Source of the DNA: a virus
Taxonomy: Duplodnaviria > Heunggongvirae > Uroviricota > Caudoviricetes
Length of the DNA: 33,277 nucleotides
Direction: 5' to 3' (one strand)
IMG/VR virus record: IMGVR_UViG_2778261295_000004
The notes under the pieces are model-generated. The model had not been told where the DNA came from. It was given only the letters and a program-made list of their open reading frames with translations, and did not search any database. This document shows, piece after piece, positions 3,165 to 33,277 of this stretch (position 1 is the stretch's first letter; the number at the start of each line of letters is the position of its first letter). Position numbers and translations under genes: made by a program.

Positions 3165-4265
3165 TCATTCCATTTCGAAATCATCAATCCTCACTTCAAG
3201 CTCCAGACTGGTCGTAAAACCGTTATCCGGGCTGACGGTATGTGTCAGAGTCGTAATGGTCCATTCCGCATCATCTATCGGCTGTTTAAAACCACTGACT
3301 TTCACTGGCATTTCCGTGTAGAGATCCGCCCGCCCTTCTGCCAGTTGTAATGAGAATGACGCAACACCGCGTTGCAGGCGTTCCCACTGCATTTTCGCCG
3401 CTCGTTCGGCGTTGCTCCGGTTGGCATAAGTGCGATTAAGTACCAGCACGTTTTCATCCGTACCCACCAGGTAATCGCCCTGCTTCGCTTCCGGCTCTTT
3501 CTTCTGCTTCTTGGCCCTGCGCTTACGCTTCACTGTAGTGCTTTCTTTCTTCGTGGGTTCGCGGGTATGCAACCAGCTGGCAATTACGCCCGTGTAAGCT
3601 CCGCGATCCGCCAGGGTAAAGCGGTGACTGTCGCCGTCCTTACGTGTGATAGTGATCACCGACAGTGGTTTACCGCTGGCACTTTTACCCTGTCCCTGCC
3701 GGATGAATAACAGATTGCCATTTTTCACCGACGCAATAGCACCGTACTGGCGCGCCAGCCGCATCAGAAAACTACCGTCACTCTCATTAGTCTGGTCTAT
3801 ATGCTCCACGGGCTTATCCGACAGGTCTTTACCCAGTGCCATCTTCAGCTTGTGACGTGCGGCTATTTCCTTCACCACTTCCCCGACAGTGGTCTTGTGC
3901 CACGATTTTTCACGGCGGGTATTCAGCGTTTCCCTAAAATCAGCACTTCGCGCCCGGATAGTCAGGCGATCCGGTGCGCCAGTGTGTTCAATCTCGTCCA
4001 CCGTGAATGCCCCTTTCGGGAAAAGCGGCTGCCCTTTCCAGCCCAGCGCCAGCGTAATAACCGCACCACGGCGCGGCAGCACGATTTTTCCGTCGGCGTC
4101 GTCCAGCTCCAGATCAAGCTGGTCCGCTTCAAATCCCCGGTTATCCGTCAACGTCAGCCCCATCAGGCGGTTGTCCAGCACAGTGGTAATATCCCTGCCT
4201 TCAATACTGATGCTGAATGCCGGAGTTTTGTTGCCTTTGTTAACCAGTTCAGAGCTGAAATTCAC
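3165..4265 (-). CDS. D: Tail protein D (late control gene D)
   Basis: 366-aa ORF in the D position after U; GTG start overlaps the U stop (GTGA). Confidence 0.9.
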   Translation of the reverse strand: MNFSSELVNKGNKTPAFSISIEGRDITTVLDNRLMGLTLTDNRGFEADQLDLELDDADGKIVLPRRGAVITLALGWKGQPLFPKGAFTVDEIEHTGAPDRLTIRARSADFRETLNTRREKSWHKTTVGEVVKEIAARHKLKMALGKDLSDKPVEHIDQTNESDGSFLMRLARQYGAIASVKNGNLLFIRQGQGKSASGKPLSVITITRKDGDSHRFTLADRGAYTGVIASWLHTREPTKKESTTVKRKRRAKKQKKEPEAKQGDYLVGTDENVLVLNRTYANRSNAERAAKMQWERLQRGVASFSLQLAEGRADLYTEMPVKVSGFKQPIDDAEWTITTLTHTVSPDNGFTTSLELEVRIDDFEME

Positions 4266-8829: not shown

Positions 8830-10002
8830 TTACGCGCTGACCTGGCTGGCGAAATTCACCAGGTACTGATCGGTGATGCGCTGACGCAGCATCAGGTTTT
8901 CAAGTGGCGGCACTGGCGTGTAGTCGTAGTCGATGGTGAGTTTTCCGGCTTTCAGCGTGTCTTTGTCGTTCACCGACTCATCCAGCCAGCAATCACCACC
9001 AATGAGATAGCCCTGACTGACCAGGCTGCGCATTTTGGCGCGGATACCTTCGATAATGTCGCGGGCCAGCGACGGGTTAAGCGGTTTATCCACCGCCCAC
9101 ATGTGTGCTTCTGCCATCGTGTCCATCAGCACCTGCGCCGTGCGGGTGTAGTTTTCGAAGGCAAAGAGCGGGTCATCACTCAGGCAGCGGGAACCCCAGA
9201 AGCGGAAACCGTCTTTACGCACAAGCGTGGTGACGTCGTTCTGGTTCAGCAGACCTGCATCGGTTGCCGGGTCCTGCAGATCCCAGAACACATCTGCAGA
9301 AATTCCGGTGACACCGTTCACGCCCACGTTGGACAGGCTTTTGTGCCATCCGGTCTGCTCGTCAATTTTGGCGCGCAGACCAAGCGCACGGGCGGTGGCA
9401 TATGCCGTTGCTTCGGCATTCAGCACCGTGTCCCAGCCAGTAAAGTCAGGCCAGATCAGCATCCCTTCGCGCTGGCTGAAGTTTTCGCGGTAAGTGATCG
9501 CCTCCTGCACTGTCTTGCAGCCATACGCTGACAGGTAAGCAAATCCACGCAGGCTTTGCGCCACGCTCAGCAACTCAGTAGCTACCGCCTTGGTGTCGTG
9601 GCCTGGCACGCCGAGAATGCGCGGTTTAACGCCGAGCTGTGACTGGGCAGATAACAGGGCTTTCATACCTGTTTTTTTACCTTCAGCAGTCACTGCGCCG
9701 ATGATATTGGTCGTGGTTTCGTCTTCCGTTTCACCCTGCGGCACACGCACAACAATGGTCACGGGTTTTGCCTGGTCAGCGATGGCATCCAGCGAACGGG
9801 CCAGAGTACCGGACTCACCCGCTTTACCGCTGGCAGTCAGCACATCAGTGATCAGCACTGGTTTATTAAGAGGAAACATTTTTGCATCGGCATCATCGCC
9901 CGTGCAGACCATACCCACGATGGCGGTGCTCACCGTGGTAATGGATCGGGTGCCTTCGTTGACTTCAACAACGCGCACCCCGTGGTGGTAATCCTGAGCC
10001 AT
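8830..10002 (-). CDS. FI: Contractile tail sheath protein FI
   Basis: 390-aa ORF at the head of the FI-FII-E-T-U-D operon; ATG start. Confidence 0.9.
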
Positions 10003-10077
10003 AAGGCAGTCTCTCCGGTAGTAGAGGGGGTCTGCCTATGTTCTGGTTGATACGAGCAGGATGCACGTTATGTGGTT

Positions 10078-10095
10078 TGTATGAAAAATGGCACA
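10078..10095. promoter_or_regulatory. TGT-N12-ACA dyad upstream of FI (candidate Ogr-dependent late promoter element)
   Basis: tgt-atgaaaaatggc-aca, centred roughly 85 bp upstream of the FI start codon. The TGT-N12-ACA dyad is the activator element I recall for P2/P4 late promoters. Confidence 0.45.
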
Positions 10096-10134
10096 ACGGC
10101 GGATACAGGAATCCCCGCAGACGCGGGGATGTAT

Positions 10135-10569
10135 TCAGACTTCTGGTGATAAAGGCCAGACTATATCCGGGGCATCACTTACATTAATATTTTCAAGTAA
10201 CTCAAGATAATCCAGCATCGCATTAAATCTGGTTGTCTCCATTTCGTTCAGCCTGCCAAGCTGTAATTTTGATGGCCATTGTTTTTCATTAATCAGGTTG
10301 TTAGCCTCATTAATGCGCATCTGTTTCATCATTTCTGCCTGTTCCACCTGTTCCTCATGGGTCAATGGTGGACGTTCTTCCCATGATGGCTGGTTATCAG
10401 TGCCTGCAACCATTTTGTACCCTTCCCGATAACCAAGATAAAACTCCTGATAGACTGCATCACTTACCTCAATACAGTCATCCGGCCACGCATCGAGAGC
10501 ATCGTAATAATCAGATTTCAGTTCACTGTTATAAAATGCATTTCTTGATGGACTGTAAAAATAACTCAT
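10135..10569 (-). CDS. G: Tail fibre assembly protein G
   Basis: ORF immediately after tail fibre H; start refined to the ATG overlapping the H stop (TGATG); table ORF extends to 10602. Confidence 0.8.
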   Translation of the reverse strand: MSYFYSPSRNAFYNSELKSDYYDALDAWPDDCIEVSDAVYQEFYLGYREGYKMVAGTDNQPSWEERPPLTHEEQVEQAEMMKQMRINEANNLINEKQWPSKLQLGRLNEMETTRFNAMLDYLELLENINVSDAPDIVWPLSPEV

Positions 10570-12299
10570 CAGACCCCCTCCGCAATAAACCCAATATTCC
10601 ATCCACCGTTATCTCCGGTGATGCTCAGAGTAAAGCCAGTTGCAGTAATAGCTGTAATGGCGACACCCTCAACACTCCCACCGTGTGGCGAACGGAAAAC
10701 GGGGATCACGTACCAGCACTGACGGGCAAATGGTGTCGGAAAATTCACCTGATACTCTTTATTCACCACACCAGTTGCCCCGGGAAAATAACTGTTAAAA
10801 AACTGCTTCAGCACACCGCCAGTTATTCGGTGATAATTGCTGCCAAATGAAAATTCATCTTCACAAACACCCCGACGCCATAGTGTTGTATTGTCTTTAA
10901 CCGTATCAGAGCCGCTGAAACGGTGATACATTTCCCCTGCTCCGGTGATGAAAATCTGCGCGCGTCTGTTCTTGTTATACGCAGCCTGAAAACCTGCACC
11001 ATTCGATGGCACTTCATCTGCATTACCTGAATATGCAAGAAACTGTGAAACCTCACCCATTTCGTAGTTATTATTGCTACCGATTCCGTATGCTCCCTGT
11101 TGCAGAGCACTTTCAGCCTTATCAACCGTCGGTTTAAGTCCCAGATTCTGAATAAACAAAGTCGGGTCAGGAATATCAGCACCATTGCGGTCCTTTGCCA
11201 GTCTCGCGCTGGCGTTGTCCATCGCAATTTTTACCGCTTTCAATGTCGCCGCAACATTTTCTGACACGCTGTTTACATCGTTCCCCAGTTGCACCATTCC
11301 TTTAACACTCACTGATGCTTCTGGATAATGTGCACTGGTGAACACCTGATTCCACGGTGTTTCATCATCGGCAATTTTCGATAACATGCTGAATCGACAG
11401 TACATCTTGCCATCATTAGCGACATAAATCTGTGCACGTCGATTGTCGTTGTAACAGGCCTGGAAACCAGCACCATGTGTTGGCACTTCTGGATAGCCGA
11501 CAGCTGTACCATAAGCAAAAAATTGCGATTTGGTTCCCATGGTTTTCAGATAAGCCAGGCCAATTCCATAATCTCCTGGCTGAATCGCTGATGCAGCTTT
11601 ATCAACAGTCGTTTTCAATCCCAGATTCTGAACAAACAGTGCCGGATTGGGAATATCAGAACCATTGCGGTCTTTTGCCAGTCTGGCGCTGGCATTATCC
11701 ATCGCTATTTTCACTGCTTTTGGCGTTGCAGCGACTGTTTCATCATTGCTTTCCACACCGCTATACAGACGTACAAATCCCTTTTCTGTCAAAGACGCAG
11801 AAGGATGGAGGCGCGATTGCTCATGAATTTCTATTTGTTGATCTACATAATGACGGGTTGCCAGCACGACAGCAGGGTCGATTTTCAGGGTGATATTGTC
11901 CGTACTGCTGGTAATCAGCACCATGCGCACGGTCTGGGTGCGCCCGCTGCCTTCAGCCAGTTGTGGCTTATAGCTTTCCGGGCAGTTGCCCACGGCAATC
12001 AATGCCCCGGACTCATCAAACAGGCCCACTTCACGTATCCACCAACCGCCCTCGTTTTCTGGGATCACCTGTTCGGCAATAATCTGGCTGCTGTTCTGCG
12101 GGTCGATATAGAGCATATTCAGCGCAGCCCGGCGTTTCTCATTTACCAATGCTGTCTGCTTTGCGTCCGGCGTTGGCAATGTTCCGCCGCCATCGCCGAC
12201 CGCCATATGGGTAATTTTTAAAGGCACACCGAGCGCGGCGGCGCTGGCAAGTTTCGCCGCGCCAATATCCGTCAGCAGGGTATAAAATTTTGTGCTCAT
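10569..12299 (-). CDS. H: Tail fibre protein H
   Basis: 576-aa ORF after baseplate gene I; N-terminus has the conserved P2-like tail fibre anchor region; C-terminal half contains a tandemly duplicated module. Confidence 0.85.
   Translation of the reverse strand: MSTKFYTLLTDIGAAKLASAAALGVPLKITHMAVGDGGGTLPTPDAKQTALVNEKRRAALNMLYIDPQNSSQIIAEQVIPENEGGWWIREVGLFDESGALIAVGNCPESYKPQLAEGSGRTQTVRMVLITSSTDNITLKIDPAVVLATRHYVDQQIEIHEQSRLHPSASLTEKGFVRLYSGVESNDETVAATPKAVKIAMDNASARLAKDRNGSDIPNPALFVQNLGLKTTVDKAASAIQPGDYGIGLAYLKTMGTKSQFFAYGTAVGYPEVPTHGAGFQACYNDNRRAQIYVANDGKMYCRFSMLSKIADDETPWNQVFTSAHYPEASVSVKGMVQLGNDVNSVSENVAATLKAVKIAMDNASARLAKDRNGADIPDPTLFIQNLGLKPTVDKAESALQQGAYGIGSNNNYEMGEVSQFLAYSGNADEVPSNGAGFQAAYNKNRRAQIFITGAGEMYHRFSGSDTVKDNTTLWRRGVCEDEFSFGSNYHRITGGVLKQFFNSYFPGATGVVNKEYQVNFPTPFARQCWYVIPVFRSPHGGSVEGVAITAITATGFTLSITGDNGGWNIGFIAEGV
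10905..11300. repeat. Tandem duplicated module inside tail fibre gene H, copy 2 (approximate bounds)
   Basis: Second occurrence of the same roughly 130-aa module, diverged in sequence from copy 1. Confidence 0.6.
11370..11760. repeat. Tandem duplicated module inside tail fibre gene H, copy 1 (approximate bounds)
   Basis: Protein segment ...AVKIAMDNASARLAKDRNG(S/A)DIP(N/D)P(A/T)LF(V/I)QNLGLK...GAGFQA.YN.NRRAQI... occurs twice in gpH; this is the first occurrence in the protein. Confidence 0.6.
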
Positions 12300-20741: not shown

Positions 20742-22508
20742 ATGAACACCACACTGACACCCGCAGATCTCGATCCCCGTCGGCAGGCCATGCTGCTGTA
20801 CTTTCAGGGATACCGCGTAGCCCGCATTGCTGAAATGCTGGGCGAGAAAGTTGCAACCGTTCACAGCTGGAAAAAACGCGACAAGTGGAGTGACTATGGG
20901 CCGCTGGATCAGATGCAGCTCACCACCGCCGCACGCTACTGCCAGCTCATTATGAAGGAGCACAAAGAAGGGAAAGATTTCAAAGAGATTGACCTGCTGG
21001 CGCGCCAGTCGGAGCGCCATGCGCGGATCGGCAAGTTTAACAATGGCGGCAACGAAGCCGACTTAAACCCTAACGTCGCCAACCGCAACAAAGGCCCGCG
21101 CCGTCAGCCGGAAAAGAACGTTTTCACCGATGAACAGATTGAGAAGCTGGAAGAAATCTTCCATTCCTCCATGTTCAACTACCAGCGCCACTGGTGGGAA
21201 GCCGGAAAAACCAACCGCATCCGCAACCTGCTGAAGTCACGCCAGATCGGCGCGACCTTCTATTTTGCCCGTGAAGCCCTGATTGACGCCCTGCTAACCG
21301 GGCGTAACCAGATTTTCCTTTCCGCCAGCAAGGCACAGGCCCACGTCTTTAAGCAGTACATCATCGACTTCGCCAAAGAAGTGGAGGTGGAGCTGAAAGG
21401 CGATCCGATGGTGCTTCCTAACGGGGCCACGCTGTACTTCCTCGGCACCAATGCCCGCACGGCCCAGAGTTACCACGGCAACCTGTATCTGGATGAATAT
21501 TTCTGGATACCGAAATTCCAGGAGCTGCGCAAAGTGGCTTCCGGTATGGCTATTCACAAGAAATGGCGACAGACCTATTTTTCCACGCCATCCAGTCTGA
21601 CACACAGTGCTTATCCGTTCTGGTCCGGTGCGCTGTTCAACCGTGGGCGCAACAAAGCCGATAAGGTGGACATCGACCTGTCCCACAGCAATCTGGCCCC
21701 CGGCCTGCTGTGCGCAGACGGGCAATACCGCCAGATAGTCACCGTGGAAGATGCGGTGCGCGGCGGCTGTAACCTGTTCGACCTTGACCAGTTGCGCATG
21801 GAGTACAGCCCGGACGAATACCAGAACCTGCTGATGTGCGAGTTTGTGGACGATCTCGCGTCCGTGTTTCCGCTCAGCGAGCTGCAGGCGTGCATGGTTG
21901 ACAGTTGGGAAGTCTGGACCGACTTTCATGCTCTGGCCCTGCGCCCGTTTGGCTGGCGCGAAGTGTGGATCGGTTATGACCCGGCAAAAGGTACGCAGAA
22001 CGGCGACAGCGCCGGATGCGTGGTGGTGGCACCGCCAGCCGTGCCTGGCGGTAAGTTTCGCATTCTTGAGCGTCACCAGTGGCGCGGGATGGACTTCCGC
22101 GCCCAGGCTGACGCCATCAAAAAACTGACCGAACAGTACAACGTGACCTATATCGGCATCGACTCGACAGGTGTCGGTCACGGTGTTTATGAGAACGTGA
22201 AAGCGTTCTTTCCTGCCGTCCGGGAGTTTGTCTACAACCCCAACGTTAAAAACGCCCTGGTACTCAAGGCCTACGACATTATCAGCCACCGCCGTCTGGA
22301 GTTTGACGCCGGGCATACCGACATCGCGCAGTCATTTATGGCAATCCGTCGCGCCACCACCGCCAGTGGCAACCGCCCGACCTATGAAGCCAGCCGCAGT
22401 GAAGAAGCCAGCCATGCCGATCTAGCCTGGGCAACAATGCACGCACTGTTTAACGAACCGCTGCAGGGCGAGTCCGCCAATACCAGCAATATTGTGGAGA
22501 TTTTTTGA
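20742..22508 (+). CDS. P: Terminase ATPase (large) subunit P
   Basis: 588-aa ORF divergent from O; ATG start; its stop overlaps the Q start (TGATG). Confidence 0.9.
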   Translation: MNTTLTPADLDPRRQAMLLYFQGYRVARIAEMLGEKVATVHSWKKRDKWSDYGPLDQMQLTTAARYCQLIMKEHKEGKDFKEIDLLARQSERHARIGKFNNGGNEADLNPNVANRNKGPRRQPEKNVFTDEQIEKLEEIFHSSMFNYQRHWWEAGKTNRIRNLLKSRQIGATFYFAREALIDALLTGRNQIFLSASKAQAHVFKQYIIDFAKEVEVELKGDPMVLPNGATLYFLGTNARTAQSYHGNLYLDEYFWIPKFQELRKVASGMAIHKKWRQTYFSTPSSLTHSAYPFWSGALFNRGRNKADKVDIDLSHSNLAPGLLCADGQYRQIVTVEDAVRGGCNLFDLDQLRMEYSPDEYQNLLMCEFVDDLASVFPLSELQACMVDSWEVWTDFHALALRPFGWREVWIGYDPAKGTQNGDSAGCVVVAPPAVPGGKFRILERHQWRGMDFRAQADAIKKLTEQYNVTYIGIDSTGVGHGVYENVKAFFPAVREFVYNPNVKNALVLKAYDIISHRRLEFDAGHTDIAQSFMAIRRATTASGNRPTYEASRSEEASHADLAWATMHALFNEPLQGESANTSNIVEIF

Positions 22509-23542
22509 TGGGAAAGAGTAAGAAGAACCGCGCTGCGTCGACGAACCAGATCCAGCATAAAAGCCAAACTTCAGCCGAAGCATTCAGCTTTGGCGATCCC
22601 GTTCCTGTTCTGGACCGCCGTGAACTGCTGGACTATGTGGAATGCGTACAGATGGATCGCTGGTATGAGCCGCCTGTGAGTTTCGACGGACTGGCGCGAA
22701 CCTTCCGCGCCGCCGTGCATCACAGCTCACCGATTGCGGTGAAATGCAACATTCTGACCAGCACCTACATCCCTCACCCGCTGCTCAGCCAGCAGGCTTT
22801 TTCACGTTTTGTGCAGGACTATCTGGTATTTGGTAACGCCTACCTGGAGAAACGCACGAACCGCTTCGGTGAAGTTATCACCCTTGAACCTGCGCTGGCA
22901 AAATACACCCGACGCGGTTTAGACCTGGATACCTACTGGTTTGTGCAATACGGCATGACCACGCAGCCGTATCAGTTCACGAAAGGCTGCATCTTTCATC
23001 TGATAGAACCGGACATCAACCAGGAGATCTACGGCCTGCCCGGTTATCTTTCTGCCATTCCGTCGGCCCTGCTCAACGAGTCCGCCACGCTGTTCCGCCG
23101 TAAATATTACATCAATGGCAGTCATGCTGGCTTCATCATGTATATGACCGATGCCGCGCAGAACCAGGAGGATGTGAACAACCTCCGCAACGCAATGAAA
23201 AGCGCCAAAGGTCCGGGTAACTTCCGCAATCTGTTTATGTACTCGCCTAATGGTAAAAAAGACGGACTTCAGATTATCCCGTTGTCAGAAGTCGCAGCGA
23301 AGGATGAATTTCTGAACATCAAGAACGTCAGCCGTGATGACATGATGGCGGCGCACCGCGTACCGCCCCAGATGATGGGAATTTTGCCGAATAATGTTGG
23401 GGGTTTTGGGGATGTGGAGAAGGCCAGTCGCGTATTTGTACGTAATGAATTAACGCCCTTGCAAAAAAGGCTACAAGAGCTGAACGACTGGCTGGGCGAA
23501 GAAGTGATTAAATTTACGCCCTATATTCTTTCAGAAGAATAA
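22508..23542 (+). CDS. Q: Portal (capsid vertex) protein Q
   Basis: Start refined to the ATG overlapping the P stop; the table ORF starts one codon earlier at TTG (22505). Confidence 0.9.
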   Translation: MGKSKKNRAASTNQIQHKSQTSAEAFSFGDPVPVLDRRELLDYVECVQMDRWYEPPVSFDGLARTFRAAVHHSSPIAVKCNILTSTYIPHPLLSQQAFSRFVQDYLVFGNAYLEKRTNRFGEVITLEPALAKYTRRGLDLDTYWFVQYGMTTQPYQFTKGCIFHLIEPDINQEIYGLPGYLSAIPSALLNESATLFRRKYYINGSHAGFIMYMTDAAQNQEDVNNLRNAMKSAKGPGNFRNLFMYSPNGKKDGLQIIPLSEVAAKDEFLNIKNVSRDDMMAAHRVPPQMMGILPNNVGGFGDVEKASRVFVRNELTPLQKRLQELNDWLGEEVIKFTPYILSEE

Positions 23543-23550
23543 TTCCGAAC

Positions 23551-24249
23551 TTATTTGTTTCTTCTTTGTTCACGCCTTGTCTTGGCTTCGATAAGGCGTT
23601 GAGGTTCAGTGTAAAGCCGTTCTAAAAAAAGATAGGTAAAATCTTCAAGATCCTCAGCAGCAGCTTTATCCAAAATACCTTCATGCGCGCCATCATTTCC
23701 GTCATCTTTAACGCATTCAGCTAGTTCCCTTAAAGCTTCAGGCAATAGATGATTATCAAATAACCAATCCATTCTTAACCCTAGGCTTCTCCTTATTTTT
23801 TGCGCAGGCCCTTGCTCCCCATCAGGAAGAAGTCCTTTTGTTGCATAATCAAGGCAAAGCCTAAACATGGTTGCTGCTGCATTATAACAACCAATAGCCA
23901 AACATTTCGCCCCTTCCTCATATGCACTATTGATATGCTCAGGTAAGAACTCTGGCGGCTCCTCTACTGCTAAGTCTGCCGGTGATATAGGCCTAACAAC
24001 CTCTGCAACTTCCTTTAAGCCGAATATTCCACTTTCCCAATTATAGCCATCTAAAGTTTTATTTTTCGTTAAAGGTCTGCAAAGAAACATTGTCGTTTTA
24101 TGACACTCTCGGCAAACACAATAGACCTCGTATTCGTATGTTTTACCCCCGCCCAATGCATTGTAAACCCTAGTGCAATTCAGCCCATTAACATCAAACG
24201 CTATTTTTTGTGATCCACATCGTGGACAGTCATCCACTAACATAACCAT
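23551..24249 (-). CDS. Cargo protein: N-terminal zinc ribbon plus C-terminal DUF4145/HEPN-like domain (candidate abortive-infection or defence effector)
   Basis: 232-aa ORF with strong GGGAGGAG Shine-Dalgarno; Cys motifs CPRC and CVCREC near the N-terminus; C-terminal ...LRELAECVKDDGNDGAHEG... resembles the GN-x-x-AH core of DUF4145 as I recall it; AT-rich compared with flanking phage genes. Confidence 0.55.
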   Translation of the reverse strand: MVMLVDDCPRCGSQKIAFDVNGLNCTRVYNALGGGKTYEYEVYCVCRECHKTTMFLCRPLTKNKTLDGYNWESGIFGLKEVAEVVRPISPADLAVEEPPEFLPEHINSAYEEGAKCLAIGCYNAAATMFRLCLDYATKGLLPDGEQGPAQKIRRSLGLRMDWLFDNHLLPEALRELAECVKDDGNDGAHEGILDKAAAEDLEDFTYLFLERLYTEPQRLIEAKTRREQRRNK

Positions 24250-24359
24250 GTCAATTGCTCCTCCCTATGAAAAAAATGAGTTGAAAAATTGAATATTCAC
24301 GACTTAAAAAGCTAGCCTATTTAACACCATAATTTCATTAATTCAACCATGAGCGCGCG

Positions 24360-24378
24360 CTCGTATCCCCGCCACGCC
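24360..24378 (-). other. Candidate cos cohesive-end core
   Basis: Minus strand reads GGCGTGGCGGGGATACGAG, matching in its first 13 nt my recollection of the 19-nt P2/186 cohesive end (GGCG(A/T)GGCGGGGAAAGCA...); adjacent perfect palindrome GAGCGCGCGCTC at 24351-24362. Confidence 0.4.
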
Positions 24379-24427
24379 TGCCCGCTTTGTGTAGTGGTTT
24401 TCATGCAGGTGCCTGATCCACGCAAAA

Positions 24428-24450
24428 GCCCGCCAGTTCTGGCGGGCCTT
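24428..24450 (-). terminator. Intrinsic terminator downstream of the 372-aa cargo gene
   Basis: gcccgccag / ctggcgggc stem followed on the minus strand by TTTTG; lies about 65 bp past the stop of the 24514..25632 gene. Confidence 0.5.
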
Positions 24451-24513
24451 AGCAAAAACGATCCTCAAACGGTCATGCAAATTCAGGCAGCATAGGCATG
24501 CACTGTTGTTAGG

Positions 24514-25632
24514 TTAGTTCGTAATGCCAATTTCCTTCAAAACTTTAGCCATTTCCGTCTGACTTAACTTGTTCCTGAACAAAGGGAAATTTTTCATTTT
24601 TTCCGCTCGTTGCCCTTTTGAAATAGTAATCTTTCCTGATGCTGATAACTCAGAGTCAAAAAAATAACATATTGTTGAATTTGAATTCTCCATATTTGAC
24701 TTGATACAATTCCATATGCTTTCTTTTTTCATTTCACACATTCTAGGACCAAAAATGATCCCTTTAACAACATTAGCATCATGATGAAAAATATGTCCAA
24801 TATTTCGATTTACGCGTCTTTGAACATGCCGCTCACTCCCTATTCCTGCATTTGCCTCTGGAATAAACATTCGATATTCAGCTTCATATCTCCAAAATCT
24901 ATTTTTAGTTAAAAATAACTCTGCAACATTTGCGCTTGGGTCTAGAAGTGAAACCTCTTTAGCCTGATTACTATATTTTATTTGCTTAACTGGAAAATTA
25001 AATTTATCTGATGAAAATAAATTTTCTCTTAGCTTCATTCCAGGATGTGGCACGCCATTAATATTAAAATCCTGCGTTTCATAAATCACAACACAACCAC
25101 TAAAGCCTGCAGCATAATGCGCCCACATCATACGATCTAACGCATTAGCTGAAAATGACACACTGAATACTGCAGGAACTATTTTCCTATACAACCTTTC
25201 TTTGATACTGTTCTCGCAAAGTGAGACCAAAAATTGGCGTGGTTCAGGAATATTCCCATAAATAGCGGAATTAATCACATTGATAGGTAGTAAACCATCA
25301 TTTATGATCTTACGTATCTCATCAACGTGTGAGTCAAACAGGCTATCTAATGACTCAATGCTACTTTTTATTTTTTTTCCTCTAAAAATACGATTCAATC
25401 CCTTATGTATCTTCAAATTACTCAAATCTAATATGTGACTCAAATTTTCATAGGATTTATCGCAAGGAGAACGCAATAAAATATCCCATAATTTCAATTT
25501 ATTATCAAAACGATAATCTATATTGAGATCATTAGGATCATTCAATTGCGCAGGAGCGGAAAAATATAATTCATTATAACGAATAGCTTTCTCGAAGAAG
25601 AAGTCCGGACGGTAATACTTGAAAAGATACAT
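24514..25632 (-). CDS. Cargo protein with DUF2971-like N-terminus (candidate anti-phage or abortive-infection protein, function unknown)
   Basis: 372-aa ORF, ATG start; N-terminal LFKYYRPDFFFEKAIRYNELYFSAPAQLNDPND resembles the DUF2971 signature as I recall it; strongly AT-rich and Asn/Lys/Ile/Phe-rich unlike the phage backbone. Confidence 0.55.
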   Translation of the reverse strand: MYLFKYYRPDFFFEKAIRYNELYFSAPAQLNDPNDLNIDYRFDNKLKLWDILLRSPCDKSYENLSHILDLSNLKIHKGLNRIFRGKKIKSSIESLDSLFDSHVDEIRKIINDGLLPINVINSAIYGNIPEPRQFLVSLCENSIKERLYRKIVPAVFSVSFSANALDRMMWAHYAAGFSGCVVIYETQDFNINGVPHPGMKLRENLFSSDKFNFPVKQIKYSNQAKEVSLLDPSANVAELFLTKNRFWRYEAEYRMFIPEANAGIGSERHVQRRVNRNIGHIFHHDANVVKGIIFGPRMCEMKKESIWNCIKSNMENSNSTICYFFDSELSASGKITISKGQRAEKMKNFPLFRNKLSQTEMAKVLKEIGITN

Positions 25633-26137
25633 GACATTACCTATAACATTGCAATATTAACAACCGTATGAAAACGGTTTGATTGTATTGATAATATCCT
25701 ATTCTGCATATACCACAGTGTAAAGATTAATTTTAAATACCATATCCAACAGTAAATCATGTATCGACCGCCAGATAAGAAGCTTTTGAAAAACTTGGAC
25801 AATAATTAATCAAAAGGTAAGAGATACTCTTCAAATACATGACGTTGGCTTCCTCTTTCGTGATAACTATCAAGACCAAGTCCATTAGATAATGGACATC
25901 AAATATTCCAAGTCAATCCAAGAACAATCATCATAAGCTCTTCCCATCCTGTATCCTCTATCTCACTCTTTTGGACATTGAAAGAAGCCCCTCTGACCGG
26001 GAATGATTGTTTCCAGCGTTTGACCACGATATACAATATGATATTTGATGTCTTTTGATCAGATGGCTAACGCCTCGCACAGCTCGTTGTTCAACCTTGC
26101 TGACGCCAGAAGCAAGTTCAGACGCCAGCAACGTTTC

Positions 26138-26371
26138 TTAATGCAGCCAGCTGTCGTCTTCCCACACCTTCTGCATAATTTTCATCACTTGTTTTCTTTC
26201 TTCGTCCAGTTGCAGTCCGGTCAGTTCCACACCGTTAGAGCTACCTTTGCGGATACGAATTACCGTTTTGGGATACAGGGGGCGCAGATTGCGGTAAAGC
26301 TCGGATTCAAGGGCGTCCAGGGTAGACTGGCTAATTTTCTGCTCTTTATCGATCATTATTTCAATGCGCAT
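26138..26371 (-). CDS. DinI-like SOS-response protein
   Basis: Start refined to internal ATG (MRIEIMIDKEQ...) with GAGGTG upstream; N-terminal MRIE... and C-terminal acidic W-containing tail resemble E. coli DinI. Confidence 0.8.
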   Translation of the reverse strand: MRIEIMIDKEQKISQSTLDALESELYRNLRPLYPKTVIRIRKGSSNGVELTGLQLDEERKQVMKIMQKVWEDDSWLH

Positions 26372-26381
26372 AAAAGTCACC

Positions 26382-26570
26382 TCAGCTGATGACATCCATT
26401 GAGCGGTTGTATTCGTGGCTTCTGATTTTTGCCATGAGTTCATCAGTCAATTCAGAAACCCACTGCAGAGCCAGCCCCTTCTCTTCATCACTACACTCAC
26501 TAGCCGCTACAAGCTTAAGAAAAAAATCAATGCGCTGGAGCTTCAAAGACTCCAAAAAATAGTCCTGCAT
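26382..26570 (-). CDS. Small protein (62 aa), first gene of the LexA-box operon; possible Tum-like antirepressor
   Basis: Internal ATG preceded by a perfect AGGAGG; the upstream part of the table ORF (to 26672) contains the LexA box and so is unlikely to be coding. Confidence 0.5.
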   Translation of the reverse strand: MQDYFLESLKLQRIDFFLKLVAASECSDEEKGLALQWVSELTDELMAKIRSHEYNRSMDVIS

Positions 26571-26611
26571 TTTTCCTCCTATGACACCACAAGCAATACT
26601 GTACACATAAC

Positions 26612-26631
26612 CACTGTTTATATTTACAGTA
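26612..26631. promoter_or_regulatory. LexA box (SOS operator)
   Basis: cactgtttatatttacagta fits the CTGT-N8-ACAG consensus with an AT-rich spacer; lies about 40 bp upstream of the small ORF start. Confidence 0.65.
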
Positions 26632-26723
26632 TATAATAATCTTACTGATGTAAAACGTTTTTTTACGTTCATCAGCCTGATATGCCTGGTATTATTAAGA
26701 GCACGAATTGTTAACCCGCGTAA

Positions 26724-29102
26724 TTAATACAGATCCCGCCACTTATCATCTTCCTGCAAACGCTGGTTCCGATAGAAGATACGCAGGCCTGCTCCTGACG
26801 GAATACTGCCGCCGCGAAGGAGTAAATCGACCTCTTTCTCGCTGCCATCAAATCCTCTGGACTTCAGTTCATAGACGAGCTGCTGTCGTTGATGGTCTGT
26901 AATTCGCTGTTTGTAGTCTCTACGCCGTTTCGGTTTCACCAGGCGTAACCTTGCAGCCAGTTCCCGGCGTTCTTTTTTGTTCATACTGTGCAGGTAATCG
27001 TGCAACTCCTTGTCATCCATACGGGTGATATCCGTTCTGGTATCCCCATCAGCTGATTTGTCTTTCCCTTGTTGGTACAAATTTTCAGCAAGGGGACAGT
27101 TATTGCCACGAGTCCGAGTCCAAGGGGCGCAAGCGCCCTGGTCGGCTGCCGCCTCCTGAACATCAACGGCCTTACGAACCATTTTCCACTTCACGGCATG
27201 AGTGCAGATCTTGCCCTCTGCAATAGGTGACCAGATGCCATAAATACGAATGCCGTGATCGCCATAGGCGGTCGGCTCTTCGTTGATTTCATAAGCGGTT
27301 CTGATGAGGTGATATTTGCGGGGAACCAGTACGCCGCCCTGCTTCATGATGTAGGTGGCAAAACAACCAGCATCAGCAGCAGCCAGGATGGCATCAAGGC
27401 GCGGGTTATCCAGTACCGGCGCACCTGCTTTTTTGTCCCCCTGTTGCCTTGCCGCCTGACCAGCCAGCAATCGCAGTTCACGGTAAGCCTGACGCCCCGG
27501 AATGCCAAAGAAGCGGAATTGCTGAACACGATGCAGAGACGCCCAGGCATTAACGTATTCAGCATTATCACGCAGGGATTTCCCCGTTTCCTTGCTGATC
27601 TCGCCAGCCAGACCACGCCCGTCAATGTTCTTACTGATGTATTTCGCGATGTAGCTTGTTGGCGTACCTTTGCGCGGGTTAATCAACTCAGACTTAAAGC
27701 GCGGCCCAGTGTTATTGCCCAGTTCCTCGCGGTCTTCACGGATGGCAAACTTACGCAGTAATGCAGTGATGGCGCGGCGGTCTTTTTTGCGCATAAAACA
27801 CAACAGGTGCCAGTGAACTGTACCGTCATGATGCGGCTCAGCCACCCGCACGCCATACCACCGCAATCCGGCTTTGTGCATCGCCTTACGAAATGCAGCA
27901 AACATGCCGACCAGATAATCACTGCTTTGTCTTACCGTCGCATTTGTCCAAGTTGGGTTGGGCCTGCCATTATTTAGCGTGGAATGGAAACGTGACGGAC
28001 AGGTGATGGTGTAGAAAACGGCGCAGTCACCGCGCATTTCCGCGATAAGCTCCAGGCCTTTAACACAGGCCATCATCTCATTGCGGCGATGCGCAGGGTT
28101 GCTGCTGCTGGCGTTTACCACATCCTCCATGTCCAGCGTGTCGCCGTCTTCGTTCACCAGTTCATGAGAACGAAAAAACTCCAGCGACTTACGGCGCTGC
28201 TCACGTTTATGCATCACGGCTTCATAGCTGACATAGGGAGATGCTTTTTTGCTGACCAGGCAGACAGCACGCAACTGCTCTTCCCGCCATTCGCAACGCA
28301 TCTTCCATAATTTCCGGTACCACCAGTCAGCGCACAACATACGCGCCAGCGAACCCGGAATGAGTTCATAGGGCACGGGTTTACGGCGGTTTCTTTTCCG
28401 GCGGAGTTGCTCAAACGCAGGCGGGATGACATCCAGACGCAGGGTTTCCGCTGCCACCTTTTCCCATGTCTTGCGGATTTCTTCTGGCTTAACGTCATCG
28501 GTGACATACAAATCGCCACAAGCTGCATCAAGGCACATGCTCATATGCGCAGCTACCAGGGTGGACAGGCGTTTCACCTGATCCTGACTCATTTCAGGCA
28601 GGATCAGCAGGCCGTCCAGCCCTTCATGGCTTGCCATAAAGCGAAAAGAAGTGGATAGCTGACAGTCGCGTACATGCTCCAGCCGTTCCAGACATGGCTT
28701 AATCGTCTCACGCAAATAGCGGGAATAAGCCTTTGGCCTGCCCAGGCTGCTGAAGTATTCAATACGTTGCATCAGTGGCTTGCTGATATGGGAAGGCTGG
28801 GCATTAACGTCCGCCAGAATGACCATATCTGGATTAAAACGCTGCTGCTCATGCGCCAGCTTTGCCCGACTAATGAGCTTATCCTGCTCCATTTCGCGCT
28901 GGACAGGATCACGGGATTCATTAAAGAAATAACGCTCCCAGACCTGATCACTCAGTGCCTCGCGGCGCAGCTGTTCCTGCTCGTTATCGGCAGCGTACAG
29001 AGCGATCAGGTTTGAAAGCGCAGAAACTGAAGATTGCTCTTCCGTCTCTACGTAAGGATTGATTGCTTTTTTCTCAGCATTCCAGGAATAGCTGTAGTTC
29101 AT
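26724..29102 (-). CDS. A: Replication initiation protein A (rolling-circle endonuclease)
   Basis: Large ORF containing ...[18 protein letters not shown]... and ...[12 protein letters not shown]... motifs typical of P2 gpA-family initiators. Start placed at ATG 29102 (GGAGA upstream, TAATG overlap with the upstream gene); table ORF extends to 29153. Confidence 0.9.
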
Positions 29103-29932
29103 TACGCAATCTCCAGTTCGAGCTGTGAAGGCTGCAAACCATTCGACAGCCAATCAGAAACTGAAGGTGGGCGAACAGCTTCAATTGCACCTTTTAAAAT
29201 TGCGCAACGGTTTTTCAGAATGACAGCTTTCAGCTCCTTTTCCGTCAGATTGCGCGAATACTCAGCCTCCTGAATAGCCCGCGTCAGCTCAGGATATTTG
29301 CTATTAAATTTGGGGACATTGCAGGCAAGATTTGTACTGTCGGCAGTCGCCAGTGGGTAATTTCCCAACACACGACCGTCAAGCATGCGCAAACCATGAA
29401 CAGCTGTTTTGAAATTGTGTCGGCAATAAATTGCTTCAAAAGCGTCCTGCATACGACGATGCCAGTGCGCAGTTCTGATAGCCGCATATTCACCAGACGA
29501 TCCAAAGCAGACACGAGGCCATTCACGACATAGCTCGATAAGCCGATCGATTGACTCGTGCAGATGCCAGACGGGAGTTGCCTTCCCGTAGAACATTTTC
29601 GGAACTTCGTTTATCAGGGCATCATTGTCACGTTCACCTCCGTCCACAACATCAGGAATGACAAAAAAAGCGACCTTAGGATGGTGGTAATAGTTCAGGA
29701 GCCATTTATAAAAATCACTCCAGTTAATTTTTAGCCCACGCACCCATGCAGAAAATGCGCCGTTATCAATGCCGACGACCTGAGCGTGCTGAATGGACGC
29801 CGCAATCTGATCTGGTCGTACATAGGAGACGAAAGCGCCAGCTCCGCTCACCGCAATACGATGAACGTCGCCAGCACTTCCCCAGACAGGCGTCCCATGG
29901 AAATGATGAATTCCGTGGTGCATTTCTTTCAC
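29102..29932 (-). CDS. Hypothetical protein between dam and A
   Basis: 276-aa ORF, GTG start overlapping the dam stop (alternative ATG at 29923); translationally coupled on both sides. Confidence 0.5.
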
Positions 29933-30783
29933 ACTTGCACCCCGAAAATAACAGTAGAGTCACGTCCCCTACTAAAATCGGCACTAAACCAATTAGCAGA
30001 TTTAGTGGCAATCATCTCTGTTGCAAATTTTCCCTCCCCCGCTGCAACGCCGATGCTGCGTTTCGCCCTGATGTAGTGGTGAGTGAAATTACGATAAAGG
30101 GACCGGGTCAAAGACGTGTTACTGTTAGAAACAATGACCGGATGTCCTTCTGATGACCGATGTTCAAGAATGGATGCCAGGTGATACTGATCATCTTCAG
30201 TGAAACCATCAGTGTGATAGCCGGAAAACGTACCGTCATAAGGCGGATCGCAATACACCACATCCCCCACCTTCAACATCGCCAGCGTTTCATCAAAGCT
30301 GGCGCAGATAAACGTTGCCCGCTGGGCTTTCTCTGCAAATGCGCGAATTTCTTTTTCAGGGAAATACGGATTTTTATAATTACCGTAGGGAATGTTGAAA
30401 TGCCCGCTCTTGTTATAGCGACATAAACCACGGTAACCGTGACGATTGAGATACAGGAAATATACCGCTTTCATGAAATCAGTAATTTCAGTGGAGTAAT
30501 TAAACTCCTGCCTTATGTTGTAATAAGCCACCTCCCTGTTTGCTTCCTCAAATAAAGCTCTGGCACGAGATATAAACGCCTCACAATCAGCAGCAACCTT
30601 TTTATAGAGGTTGATTAAATCAGGATTAATATCCGCAACAAGATAGCTGGGGTAATCCGTCTCCATCATCACTGCACAGGAACCCGCGAAAGGTTCAACC
30701 AGTCGCGGGCCAGCAGGAAGATGCTTTTTCAGTTCGGACATTATGGCGGTTTTATTTCCTGCCCATTTCAGGATGGTGCTCAT
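29929..30783 (-). CDS. dam: DNA adenine methyltransferase (Dam family)
   Basis: Start refined to ATG ([11 protein letters not shown]...) with GGAGGTG upstream; contains the ILKWAGNK and DPPY motifs of Dam-type N6-adenine methyltransferases. Confidence 0.85.
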
Positions 30784-31007
30784 ACAGCACCTCCGTTGTA
30801 ATGTTTGCCTTTCAGCTCTGCGATTTCCTGACAGGTAATGCAAAGCTGCACACCCGGAATGGCACGGCGGCGTGCTGGCGGAATTGGCGCTTCACACTCA
30901 ACGCAAAGCACGCGGGACACGCCCGGCGTTTTGGCACGGGCAGCACGGATATGGCGTTGGCGTTCTTCTTCAACGCGCTGCTGTACGAGATCCATTGCAT
31001 CAGCCAT
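30780..31007 (-). CDS. TraR/DksA-family C4 zinc-finger protein
   Basis: 75-aa ORF with CVEC ... CITC spacing; ATGA overlap with dam. Confidence 0.75.
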   Translation of the reverse strand: MADAMDLVQQRVEEERQRHIRAARAKTPGVSRVLCVECEAPIPPARRRAIPGVQLCITCQEIAELKGKHYNGGAV

Positions 31008-31240
31008 CAGTGGATCTCCTGCGCTTCGTTCTGGATTGCTTCAGCAGTCACACGCAGCAGTTCTGCCGCTTCGACGTGGTTTAGCTGGCGGGAGGTGATA
31101 TGACACGCCAGGCTATCGAGGCGAGCAGCCATTGCTTCAGCCCTTGCCCGGCGTTCTTCCAGACGAGCCTCTGTCAGTAAAAGATTAAGACCTGCATCAT
31201 CCGGTCCGGTTTTGGTCGTGAGGGTTTCAATATTACGCAT
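31007..31240 (-). CDS. Hypothetical early-operon protein
   Basis: Start refined to ATG (MRNIETL...) with AGGAGA upstream; ATGA overlap with the downstream gene. Confidence 0.5.
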   Translation of the reverse strand: MRNIETLTTKTGPDDAGLNLLLTEARLEERRARAEAMAARLDSLACHITSRQLNHVEAAELLRVTAEAIQNEAQEIH

Positions 31241-31307
31241 AAGCAATTCTCCTGAATTTAGATAAAGGGATGCCCGGCGGGTTTACGCCATTAATTTCAT
31301 TAGTTGG

Positions 31308-31649
31308 TTAATTCGGCATGGTTAGCCGTCTGGGAAATAAGCTCACCACTGCACGAAAATGATTCATTGCTTTAATCAACTCCCGCTTTTCGTCAGTGGT
31401 CAGCTCATTAATGCTGATGCTATGACGTTCAGCTGGAATTTTTGCCATAAAGAATATGGCAGCCAGTGCCCGTTTATTTTGTTCATTATTGATATCCCGA
31501 GGATCACGCATATCTTTAATAAACCGCTCAAGCTCTGACTCAATATTCAAACCAAAAACTTTCGCCCTTAACTCCGCAATATGATTAAGTCCATTCAGGC
31601 GTTCACCGGGTCTTAATGGAACAGTCGCCGCAGCGCCTTCAATAGCCAT
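31308..31649 (-). CDS. Hypothetical early-operon protein
   Basis: 113-aa ORF, ATG start, same strand and operon as cII and A. Confidence 0.5.
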   Translation of the reverse strand: MAIEGAAATVPLRPGERLNGLNHIAELRAKVFGLNIESELERFIKDMRDPRDINNEQNKRALAAIFFMAKIPAERHSISINELTTDEKRELIKAMNHFRAVVSLFPRRLTMPN

Positions 31650-31813
31650 TTGTTCCCCCGTTTTTTCGTAGATAGTTCTGCCAGCAATTCATCTTGTGAA
31701 CGGCACGGATGCCAGCGTTTACCATCCTCACCCATGATCCAGCCGTGACCGTAGTGCATTGCCGGACTTTGTTTTACCAGCAGCGATGCAAATGATGGTT
31801 CTTTCGTCAGCAT
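31613..31813 (-). CDS. Hypothetical small protein
   Basis: Start refined to ATG (MLTKEP...) with GAGGTG upstream; contains HPC/WH residues. Confidence 0.4.
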   Translation of the reverse strand: MLTKEPSFASLLVKQSPAMHYGHGWIMGEDGKRWHPCRSQDELLAELSTKKRGNKWLLKALRRLFH

Positions 31814-31820
31814 AAGCACC

Positions 31821-32330
31821 TCACAGCAAACCGAATGAAGCACCGAGGCCAGTCACGGTATCAACTGCACTCGCCATCGCAGGATTAGCCTGTAAACGGG
31901 CCTGCAATGAAACAGCGGCCAGCGCCATCAGTCGTGTTACAGAGTTAATGCTGCTGATAGCATCACGACGACCTGCACTGGTTTTTACATCGCCAGATAC
32001 CGCACCTGCAGCAACACGCCCGATCTCTGCGGTTGCACTCATGACATAATGCGGCAGTTTCTCTTTTGCCACCTCATTAATCGGTACACATGGCAGGCAG
32101 TGAATCTGTGCCAGAAAGCCATCTACCAGCGTTGAATCTTCAGTCAGATCGGTAAGCAACCAGATTTCTGGTGCGGTTAATAAATGAGGTTGAGCTGGGT
32201 TCAGCTTGTTCCGCAGAATCTGTACATTCATGCCTGCACGTTCTGCCAGTCGCACCAGGTTGTGGCGCAGTGCGAATGCACGACAGGCTTCGTCAAAATG
32301 TGGATGTTTGGAAACTTGATAATCAAACAT
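31821..32330 (-). CDS. cII: CII-like lysogeny establishment regulator (186 CII-type)
   Basis: 169-aa ORF directly downstream of apl/cox on the lytic strand; the length equals what I recall for 186 CII; call is by position and size, not by a verified alignment. Confidence 0.55.
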
Positions 32331-32362
32331 AGTCAGCCCCTTCCCTTTATTTCAAAATCGAA

Positions 32363-32584
32363 TCAATTGATTACGACATTGGAATCGGCAAGCGCATCCA
32401 CTGTCATGGCTGCAATGTTGATCATTACCTTTTCACGTTTTTTATCCTTGCGAAGACGATGCCGCTTAAGGCGTCCATCTGCGAGCATACTGTTGATAGT
32501 GTCTACAGATAACCCTGTGAGTTCACTGTACTTTTCAACCGAAATGGATGGGACAGCTAATGTGATTGAAATGTGCTGAGTCAT
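32363..32584 (-). CDS. Excisionase / lytic-switch repressor (Apl/Cox-like)
   Basis: 73-aa basic protein with helix-turn-helix-like segment (SVEKYSELTGLSVDTINSMLADGRL), first gene of the operon divergent from cI; AGGAGA Shine-Dalgarno. Confidence 0.65.
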   Translation of the reverse strand: MTQHISITLAVPSISVEKYSELTGLSVDTINSMLADGRLKRHRLRKDKKREKVMINIAAMTVDALADSNVVIN

Positions 32585-32635
32585 AAGGCAACATCTCCTG
32601 TTTAAGTGTGTTTAACATTGACGAGTAGTTGTAAG

Positions 32636-32709
32636 TCACATTTTGAAATCAATGCGACTATAAGATCACAAATTGAAATCGTCAACCATAAAGTTCACAA
32701 GGTGAAATC
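32636..32709. promoter_or_regulatory. Three direct repeats TCACA-N3-TGAAATC in the cI / apl switch region (candidate operator sites)
   Basis: Copies at 32636-32650, 32666-32680 and 32695-32709, spaced 30 and 29 bp; the third overlaps the cI ribosome-binding site. Confidence 0.5.
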
Positions 32710-32710
32710 G

Positions 32711-33277
32711 ATGGATTTTAGTCAAGGTGGAAAGAAAGCTATCGAAAGGATGGTTGAAGCCTATGGGTTCACTACAAGACAGGCGTTATGTGAACAACTA
32801 GGCATATCAAAAAGCAGTCTTGCTACACGCTACATGAGAGATTCATTCCCTTCTGATTGGGTTATTCAGTGCGCGCTCGAAACAGGAGTAAACATAAAGT
32901 GGCTGGTAACAGGCTTACCTCCTAAACATGAATATTTAACGTCTGACATCATCAATATTCAAAAAATAAAATTGATTGATGGAGTGCTATTGGATGCAGG
33001 AACACTAATGTTTGACAAAGTGTTCATTCCTGATGGTTTATCATCACCATCTGTGATATCAAACGGGAATAACTCTTATTTTATTGAGAGGGATTTCACA
33101 GATGTAGTTGATGGTGATTGGTTAATCTCCATTGATGGAAAGCATTCTATAAAACAAGTTATTAGAATTCCTGATAATAAAGTTAAGATTAACTATGGGA
33201 ATATCATTGTTGATATGAACATTAATGACCTTGTATTCATCGGCAAAGTTATAGCAGAATTCAAGATAAGAGGCTAA
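32711..33277 (+). CDS. cI: Immunity repressor CI (186-type)
   Basis: Start placed at ATG with AAGGTG upstream (table ORF starts at GTG 32606); N-terminal HTH-like segment (TTRQALCEQLGISKSSLATRYMRD), divergent from apl/cox; stop codon is the last three bases of the window. Confidence 0.7.
   Translation: MDFSQGGKKAIERMVEAYGFTTRQALCEQLGISKSSLATRYMRDSFPSDWVIQCALETGVNIKWLVTGLPPKHEYLTSDIINIQKIKLIDGVLLDAGTLMFDKVFIPDGLSSPSVISNGNNSYFIERDFTDVVDGDWLISIDGKHSIKQVIRIPDNKVKINYGNIIVDMNINDLVFIGKVIAEFKIRG

Follow-up and report, generated by a model that had tools for sequence, protein, structure and literature searches.

The 33,277-nucleotide stretch analysed here (the window; IMG/VR virus record IMGVR_UViG_2778261295_000004, Caudoviricetes) represents a P2/186/Fels-2-like prophage. 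The interval between its portal gene Q and a DinI-like gene holds two minus-strand open reading frames (ORFs) of 232 and 372 amino acids, hereafter gene 1 and gene 2, which stand on opposite sides of a cos-like site. We favour, with moderate confidence, the reading that each is a single-gene abortive-infection module and that the two, which are unrelated, were acquired independently on either side of cos. By sequence comparison, gene 1 belongs to a sister family of the defence protein RAZR, with the same architecture and effector and a different sensor domain, while gene 2 encodes a DUF2971 protein with a predicted ADP-ribosyltransferase (ART)-like fold. A more specific version of this reading, which we hold only tentatively, is that gene 1 represents a large RAZR sister family (at least 223 representatives after clustering at 50% identity) sensing a different phage signal through its unrelated ribbon and longer linker, and that gene 2 is an antitoxin-free, DarT/Tpt1-like nucleic-acid ART that silences itself until a phage trigger releases it.

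Gene 1 and its relationship to RAZR

RAZR, the ring-activated zinc-finger RNase, is the new name of PD-T7-4 (Zhang et al., Nature 2026, PMC13017515; PDB 9Y9C). It is encoded by a single gene, combines a zinc finger with DUF4145 and is harmless without its trigger; a 24-mer forms around phage portal or Erf-like rings and then cleaves single-stranded RNA (ssRNA) via R146/H154, and the zinc-finger domain sets the specificity (PMC13017515). The product of gene 1, identical to WP_000245244.1 of E. coli RM10740, shares this organisation: a single gene of ~210-230 amino acids, an N-terminal Cys4 ribbon, a linker and a C-terminal DUF4145/HEPN domain. Pfam DUF4145 (PF13643) matches at E 4e-7 and 30.5 bits, above its gathering cutoff of 23.1, and together with the helical fold this match places gene 1 in the DUF4145 branch of the HEPN superfamily. 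The R-x7-H motif is present, with a conservative K for R at its first position. Among 59 diverse homologues, the four ribbon cysteines (C8, C11, C46 and C49) are invariant in every one, E112 and R130 are also invariant, and H189 is kept in 57; at position 181, 34 have R and 21 have K, the latter being found throughout the enterobacterial clade. Identity across the A1 homologue set is 70% in the HEPN domain, 43% in the ribbon and 31% in the linker, and the ribbon is proposed as a variable, candidate sensor domain. Gene 1 belongs to a large family, for which a library clustered at 50% identity yields 1901 representatives at a threshold of E<=1e-3 and 223 when this is tightened to E<=1e-30; almost all have ~230 amino acids and match end to end. 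PHROG 1305 labels it 'DNA binding protein', a label for which we found no further support, and NCBIfam has no model for the protein of gene 1 or of gene 2.

Single-sequence and narrow (A1) profile searches of PDB sequences with gene 1 returned nothing, and only the broader A3 profile of the family reached the RAZR chain 9y9c (E 3.4e-4), placing K181 on R146 and H189 on H154. When RAZR-family sequences, gathered using the 9Y9C RAZR fragment, were compared with the gene 1 family by hhalign, the two aligned with probability 96.9 and E 1.8e-10 over the HEPN domain only, at 22% identity. BLASTP of gene 1 against RAZR extends the alignment to the linker end, and over the two comparisons the HEPN identity is ~22-26%; the C-terminal end of the gene 1 linker, ISPADLAVEEPPEFLPEH, aligns with IIPAAGNVELPNPDMPDN in the RAZR linker. 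The HEPN domain and the linker end are homologous between the two families, each of which varies most in its N-terminal domain.

It is unlikely, in our judgement, that gene 1 is a plain RAZR/PD-T7-4 orthologue that would assemble as a 24-mer around portal or Erf-like rings and offer nothing new. The domain order is the same, the HEPN domain and linker are homologous, the catalytic residues align, and PADLOC does match gene 1 to its PD-T7-4 model (PDLC04109) at E 1.4e-6; however, this match amounts to 25.9 bits over positions 39-165 of the 211-position model, whereas positions 1-209 are matched, at 315-339 bits, by the RAZRs of E. coli, K. variicola and Pantoea. When the zinc ribbons are compared as isolated domains by hhalign, the alignment is confined to 14 columns at a single CxxC knuckle, the second one (probability 47), and no global alignment is obtained. 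The low HEPN identity also speaks against orthology, as does the size and separateness of the gene 1 family (its 223 representatives at E<=1e-30), and the gene 1 linker is ~25 residues longer. Because of the bit scores, the non-aligning N-terminal domains and the longer linker, we place gene 1 in a sister family and not in RAZR itself. The two also differ in genomic slot: gene 1 sits between Q and cos of a P2-like phage, whereas PD-T7-4 'often overlaps an integrase gene' (PMC9519451).

Three other single defence proteins carry a HEPN-type domain, in other arrangements. DS-38 (WP_001313577.1, DefensePredictor) has an N-terminal HEPN domain and C-terminal cysteine-rich zinc fingers, and an identification of gene 1 as DS-38 was rejected on this reversed domain order and the length of 366 amino acids. 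In BxaP and Ishtar, DUF4145 is N-terminal and is joined to other C-terminal domains, unlike in gene 1.

Distant homologues of gene 1 occur alone in Nitrospira, beside integrase, IS91, AbiTii and ParE genes in Oceanimonas, and also in Burkholderia, Stx and Gordonia phages. Zinc-ribbon HEPN homologues of ~25% identity are found in Shigella phage POCJ13 (locus L012, 3040-3714) and phage PhiR12_3 (locus L013, 2992-3666); those in Stx/lambdoid phages lie near RelE/ParE-type toxin, antitoxin, Ren-like exclusion or Roi genes, and the homologue in the actinophage Meyran, a Gordonia phage, stands first among the genes of its genome (145-759). As such homologues show, the zinc-ribbon HEPN architecture recurs in phage cargo positions beyond P2. 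The Stx-phage and ECOR13-phage homologues (~25% identity) were rejected as true RAZRs, with E ~1e-3 on the PD-T7-4 model.

In the AlphaFold2 (AF2) model of gene 1, residues 184-190 (23680-23700), which form the invariant GNDGAH loop, are the sole stretch with a predicted local distance difference test score below 50. The low score could mean that the loop stays disordered until the protein dimerises or is activated.

Gene 2 is a DUF2971 protein flagged as a defence candidate

The product of gene 2 is identical to WP_021542067.1. It matches four models of the PADLOC candidate family PDC-S31 (best E 3e-23, ~81 bits, positions 9-236 of 259), as do 38 of 38 sampled relatives; PHROG 1762 matches at E 5e-29, and Pfam DUF2971 (PF11185) gives a marginal match of E 3e-4 and 22.4 bits against a cutoff of 22.0. 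The scores on PDC-S31 are moderate and its models span 208-273 positions, so the 370-residue clade has an extra insert and additional C-terminal sequence. All 58 homologues are of ~370 amino acids and come from Enterobacterales and Pseudomonas. The invariant blocks read FK..R....RYNE.YFS..LNDP.D, S.SFS, MWAHY..GF.GC and KN.FW.YE.E.R, and conservation is concentrated in a core made of residues 1-45 (73% identity) and 151-260 (50%), whereas the helical insert (46-150) and the C-terminal region (261-372) are variable (~35%). A published description presents DUF2971 as a DarT-like ART in which a Tyr (motif II) and an ExE (motif III) are conserved (PMC12522546), and the ExE of gene 2, E250-A-E252, was assigned as the motif III candidate following this description.

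The nearest folds of gene 2 are the nucleic-acid ARTs DarT and Tpt1, not the protein-toxin ARTs; when PDB sequences were searched with a profile of the gene 2 family, only chance matches were returned. DarT of DarTG, an ssDNA thymidine ADP-ribosyltransferase, and Tpt1/KptA have no detectable sequence similarity to gene 2, and DarT lacks both the ~105-residue helical insert and the ~110-residue C-terminal region. In DarTG, DarT is encoded together with DarG; no DarG macrodomain or NADAR partner is found among the neighbours of gene 2 (the DinI-like gene and small hypotheticals), which places gene 2 outside DarTG, and the other gene 2 contexts examined contain no conserved partner. One of these homologues, 40% identical, is part of the cargo of a lambdoid prophage, where GIY-YIG, HNH and DUF7380 genes surround it.

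Two DUF2971 proteins are known to protect against phage: Aristaios, a 316-residue protein of a lactococcal plasmid with an abortive-infection phenotype, and DS-45, a 181-residue E. coli protein from DefensePredictor. Both resemble gene 2 in Pfam family, single-gene organisation and predicted ART-like fold, and DS-45 also shares the ...EAEYR... motif. Both are very distant from it and differ in size and inserts, Aristaios being compared by description only; the hhalign result of DS-45 against the gene 2 family is weak (E 0.11). The DefensePredictor tables list WP_021542067.1 itself as a 'predicted novel defense gene' with log-odds of 8.6, and it is absent from the tested-systems table. For PDC-S31, the literature searched contained no account of an experimental test.

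A cos-centred hotspot in which the two genes assort independently

The two genes occupy the cos-proximal interval between gpA and gpQ, a defence hotspot of P2-like phages that has already been published (Rousset 2022, PMC9122126; Vassallo 2022, PMC9519451; NAR 2026 gkag898, PMC13586616). As expected for this locus, variable genes lie between the conserved gpQ and gpA/DinI and adjoin cos, and relatives with ~88-95% identical flanks, among them those at ~94%, carry different cargo, including AIPR/Abi-alpha, TIR, SEFIR, Hypoth_Ymh and assorted hypotheticals; the variable hotspot expected from the first-pass annotation of this DNA, which called for a Q-to-A comparison across relatives, is thus borne out. 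That annotation also related the island to the A-to-cos cargo position. The hotspot locus stands, but gene 1 lies on the Q side of cos, outside the A-to-cos arm where P2 carries old and tin, which puts gene 1 at one end of the linear virion DNA and gene 2 at the other. The locus is the same as the old/tin hotspot of P2, with cos-adjacent, rapidly swapped, AT-rich cargo; the cargo genes are others, both sides of cos are filled, and here the swap junction can be placed inside cos.

This junction is seen from comparison with two relatives. Positions 23402-24406 are 98.9% identical to phage Cartapus, and 24352-26800 are 100% identical to E. coli ARL09/232. A Cartapus-like left part and a right part identical to ARL09/232 indicate that the window is a recombinant, with its junction in the 55 bp around cos (24352-24406); as the two matches overlap only across the cos core, cos seems to be the recombination anchor at which two cargo slots are swapped. 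The relatives show both slots exchanged: the DUF4145 gene next to Q recurs in Cartapus, E. coli RM10740 and LF82, whose genes past cos are different, and ARL09/232 has an AIPR gene next to Q and the same DUF2971 gene past cos.

In a set of 5426 complete E. coli genomes, 46 carry gene 1, 27 carry gene 2 and a single one (LR882997) carries both, as alleles ~81-84% identical to those of the window. The chance expectation for co-occurrence is ~1 among the ~1250 genomes with a match anywhere in the interval, presumably for the most part through the cos region. Purifying selection acts on both genes: computed against the LR882997 alleles, the ratio of nonsynonymous to synonymous substitution rates (dN/dS) is 0.04 in gene 1 and 0.135 in gene 2. 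In distant contexts, neither gene has a conserved partner.

These data support two independent single-gene modules, the organisation that had been suggested from the terminator hairpin and cos-like site lying between the genes, both of which are read in the sequence; an operon of the two genes was rejected on the co-occurrence and junction evidence. A single cooperating two-gene system reaching across cos appears very improbable to us. The genes do share a strand, are neighbours in the prophage form and co-occur both here and in LR882997, but such co-occurrence is at about chance level, a terminator and cos stand between them, and their usual partners differ (AIPR with gene 2, other hypotheticals with gene 1). 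Moreover, distant homologues of either gene are found alone, and the window in which the pair was seen is itself a cos-centred recombinant.

Proposed mode of action and alternative functions

We infer for both genes a defence phenotype with the following triggers, substrates and control. In gene 1, the variable Cys4 ribbon and the linker would bind a protein of the infecting phage, which, by analogy with RAZR, could be a large oligomeric assembly. Binding would position the C-terminal DUF4145/HEPN domains such that K181/H189 cleaves ssRNA, and this cleavage would stop translation. Since gene 1 falls outside PD-T7-4 and its zinc ribbon does not align with that of RAZR, a ring scaffold as the trigger is pure analogy. 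In gene 2, the DarT/Tpt1-like core (segments 1-45 and 151-260, with the invariant E250-x-E252) would use NAD+ once infection is sensed and would ADP-ribosylate nucleic acid or, less likely, protein. No DarG-type antitoxin is adjacent, so gene 2 is presumably restrained by its own insert (46-150) and C-terminal region (261-372), which would amount to autoinhibition.

Several points weigh against this reading. For gene 1, the full-length PD-T7-4 profile is not matched, the N-terminal Cys4 domain is not recognisably homologous to that of RAZR, its clade has K and not R at the first catalytic position, and model confidence is lowest in the catalytic loop. For gene 2, the candidate catalytic residues were assigned from conservation, not superposition, and FDRT, a different DUF2971 protein of E. 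coli (281 amino acids), is in the DefensePredictor test table without a DS name, which we read as tested without protection. The promoter scan listed 13 sites against 9.7±3.5 in shuffled sequence, which is no excess and does not establish promoters. Finally, no phage test of either protein or of a close homologue was found in the literature searched, and WP_000245244 and WP_000245245 are not among the DefensePredictor table entries listed.

Gene 2 might instead serve something other than defence, as a phage-benefit ART (host takeover or counter-defence, like T4 Alt/Mod) or as a lysogenic-conversion or virulence effector. ART folds serve all these roles, a Legionella survey predicts ~18% of DUF2971 proteins to be secreted effectors (PMC12522546), and FDRT appears to have been tested without protection. 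We nevertheless regard this as improbable, considering that gene 2 occupies a slot where relatives hold validated or recognised defence genes, that it matches a PADLOC defence-candidate family and the identical protein scores high in DefensePredictor, that its nearest folds are the nucleic-acid ARTs, and that two DUF2971 proteins gave defence phenotypes. In the contexts examined, no secretion-related gene is adjacent; signal peptides were not searched for.

Another possibility to which we give little weight is that one of the genes, or each of them, plays no part against phages and is a selfish addiction toxin or an inert moron. HEPN and ART are common as toxin domains; yet neither gene has a conserved antitoxin-like neighbour, selection on them is strongly purifying, and both are spread widely across taxa at constant length. 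RAZR, moreover, is non-toxic without its trigger. The reading as two defence modules thus remains the one that we prefer.

Novelty and significance

The first-pass annotation proposed a candidate undescribed module and stated that neither protein matched a named defence system. The latter statement has to be withdrawn: gene 1 matches the PD-T7-4 model and has a HEPN domain homologous to that of RAZR, and gene 2 matches PDC-S31 and DUF2971. These matches to named systems hold at the level of superfamily or candidate family and extend neither to orthology nor to experimental testing. The module is not an undescribed system because both genes are of known kinds, they have been flagged by prediction resources, and the locus is known as a defence hotspot; what survives of the claim is that neither gene is an orthologue of a characterised system and that we found no record of a test. 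The underlying observations held well. Both ORFs are exact in position, strand and length (Table 1). The zinc ribbon plus DUF4145 and the DUF2971 assignments agree with the Pfam matches and the invariant cysteines, DUF2971 scoring just above its cutoff, and the AT-rich interruption estimated at about 2.6 kb measures 2595 bp, with a G+C content of 0.379 against 0.552 in the backbone.

If confirmed, gene 1 would be a natural comparison for RAZR, with the same effector domain and a non-homologous sensor, and could test ring templating as a general activation rule for zinc-ribbon HEPN proteins. If gene 1 does sense a different signal, this would show whether or not the positioning of HEPN domains is a principle that extends past ring scaffolds. 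Gene 1 might further reveal how self-activation is prevented in a prophage that produces a portal ring itself. Gene 2 could lead to a first mechanism for the DUF2971 defence proteins, which are widespread (Aristaios, DS-45 and PDC-S31), and, if our proposal is true, would represent a new regulatory solution for a DarT-type toxin, namely control without a DarG antitoxin. The junction at cos illustrates cleanly that P2-like phages shuffle the cargo of the two sides independently. These findings add to the current picture of phage-borne defence hotspots and do not change it.

Layout of the locus

The features of the interval and its flanks are collected in Table 1.

Table 1. Features of the cos-proximal interval and its flanks, in window coordinates
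Feature	Position	Strand	Basis
Terminase P, P2-type	20742-22508	+	ORF list
Portal gene Q, 345 aa (amino acids)	22505-23542	+	ORF; homologous phages/genomes annotate portal
Gene 1, 232 aa, zinc ribbon + DUF4145/HEPN	23551-24249	-	ORF, Pfam, PADLOC
Gene 1 residues 101-232, DUF4145/HEPN, predicted RNase	23554-23949	-	
K181-H189 codons (KDDGNDGAH), HEPN R/K-x7-H motif	23683-23709	-	Aligned to RAZR R146, H154
Gene 1 residues 61-100, long variable linker	23950-24069	-	Alignment
Gene 1 residues 1-60, Cys4 zinc ribbon (C8, C11, C46, C49), three beta-strands	24070-24249	-	Strands from AF2 model
Gene 1 upstream region, cos to ATG	24250-24359	-	Ribosome-binding site and AT-rich putative promoter
cos-like cohesive-end core	24360-24378	.	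Sequence; Cartapus annotation
Intrinsic-terminator-like hairpin GCCCGCCAGAACTGGCGGGC then TTTT, downstream of gene 2	24424-24447	-	Read from sequence
Gene 2, 372 aa, DUF2971, ART-like fold	24514-25632	-	ORF, Pfam, PADLOC
E250-A-E252 codons, ExE motif, ART motif III candidate, within KN.FW.YE.E.R	24877-24885	-	Invariant 38/38
AT-rich spacer, 505 bp, upstream of gene 2	25633-26137	-	Promoter-like sites 25724-25696, 25916-25889
DinI-like gene, right flank of hotspot	26138-26443	-	Pfam DinI E 1.2e-22
gpA	26724-29153	-	ORF list

The AT-rich island spans 23543-26137, and the late-gene backbone with which it was compared spans 3165-23542. The island is the lowest-GC stretch of its length in the window, with a G+C content this low or lower in 5 of 614 segments of equal length. 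Terminase P and Q point toward cos on the plus strand, while gpA, a small ORF and the DinI-like gene approach from the opposite side on the minus strand. Q, the conserved left flank of the hotspot, is convergent with gene 1, with 8 bp separating the stop codons.

Upstream of gene 1, a ribosome-binding site that reads as strong, GGGAGGAG, lies at 24258-24265. A consensus scan of the minus strand over 24250-24359 found no sigma-70 match, and the gene 1 promoter is therefore only putative. On the minus strand, the cos-like core reads GGCGTGGCGGGGATACGAG, which resembles the cohesive ends of 186 and P2; the homologous stretch of Cartapus is annotated as a putative cos site. The GC-rich hairpin (24447-24424) was not listed by the consensus terminator scan because the scan demands at least 5 T.

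The spacer upstream of gene 2 is 100% identical to that of E. coli ARL09/232. It contains the decayed remnant of an 86-residue conserved hypothetical ORF (25891-26058, minus strand) with an in-frame stop; this ORF is unbroken in Cartapus (CARTA_46), LF82 and LR882997, and the same remnant is present in ARL09/232. An Rfam scan of the island found no RNA family. The real start of the DinI-like gene is probably at 26371, since relatives annotate a 77-residue product. Upstream of it, a 96-residue ORF (26382-26672, minus strand), for which relatives annotate a 62-residue hypothetical, has no Pfam or PADLOC match.

Other stretches of lower G+C content (0.39-0.49) within the prophage are 10001-12000, which surrounds a 576-residue minus-strand ORF, and 29001-33277, the early/integrase end. 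A full-length RybB small RNA (Rfam RF00110, 105 bits) lies at 2700-2778 on the plus strand, just beyond the gpD-side end of the prophage, and the first late-gene ORF begins at 3165; the prophage therefore appears to be integrated beside rybB.

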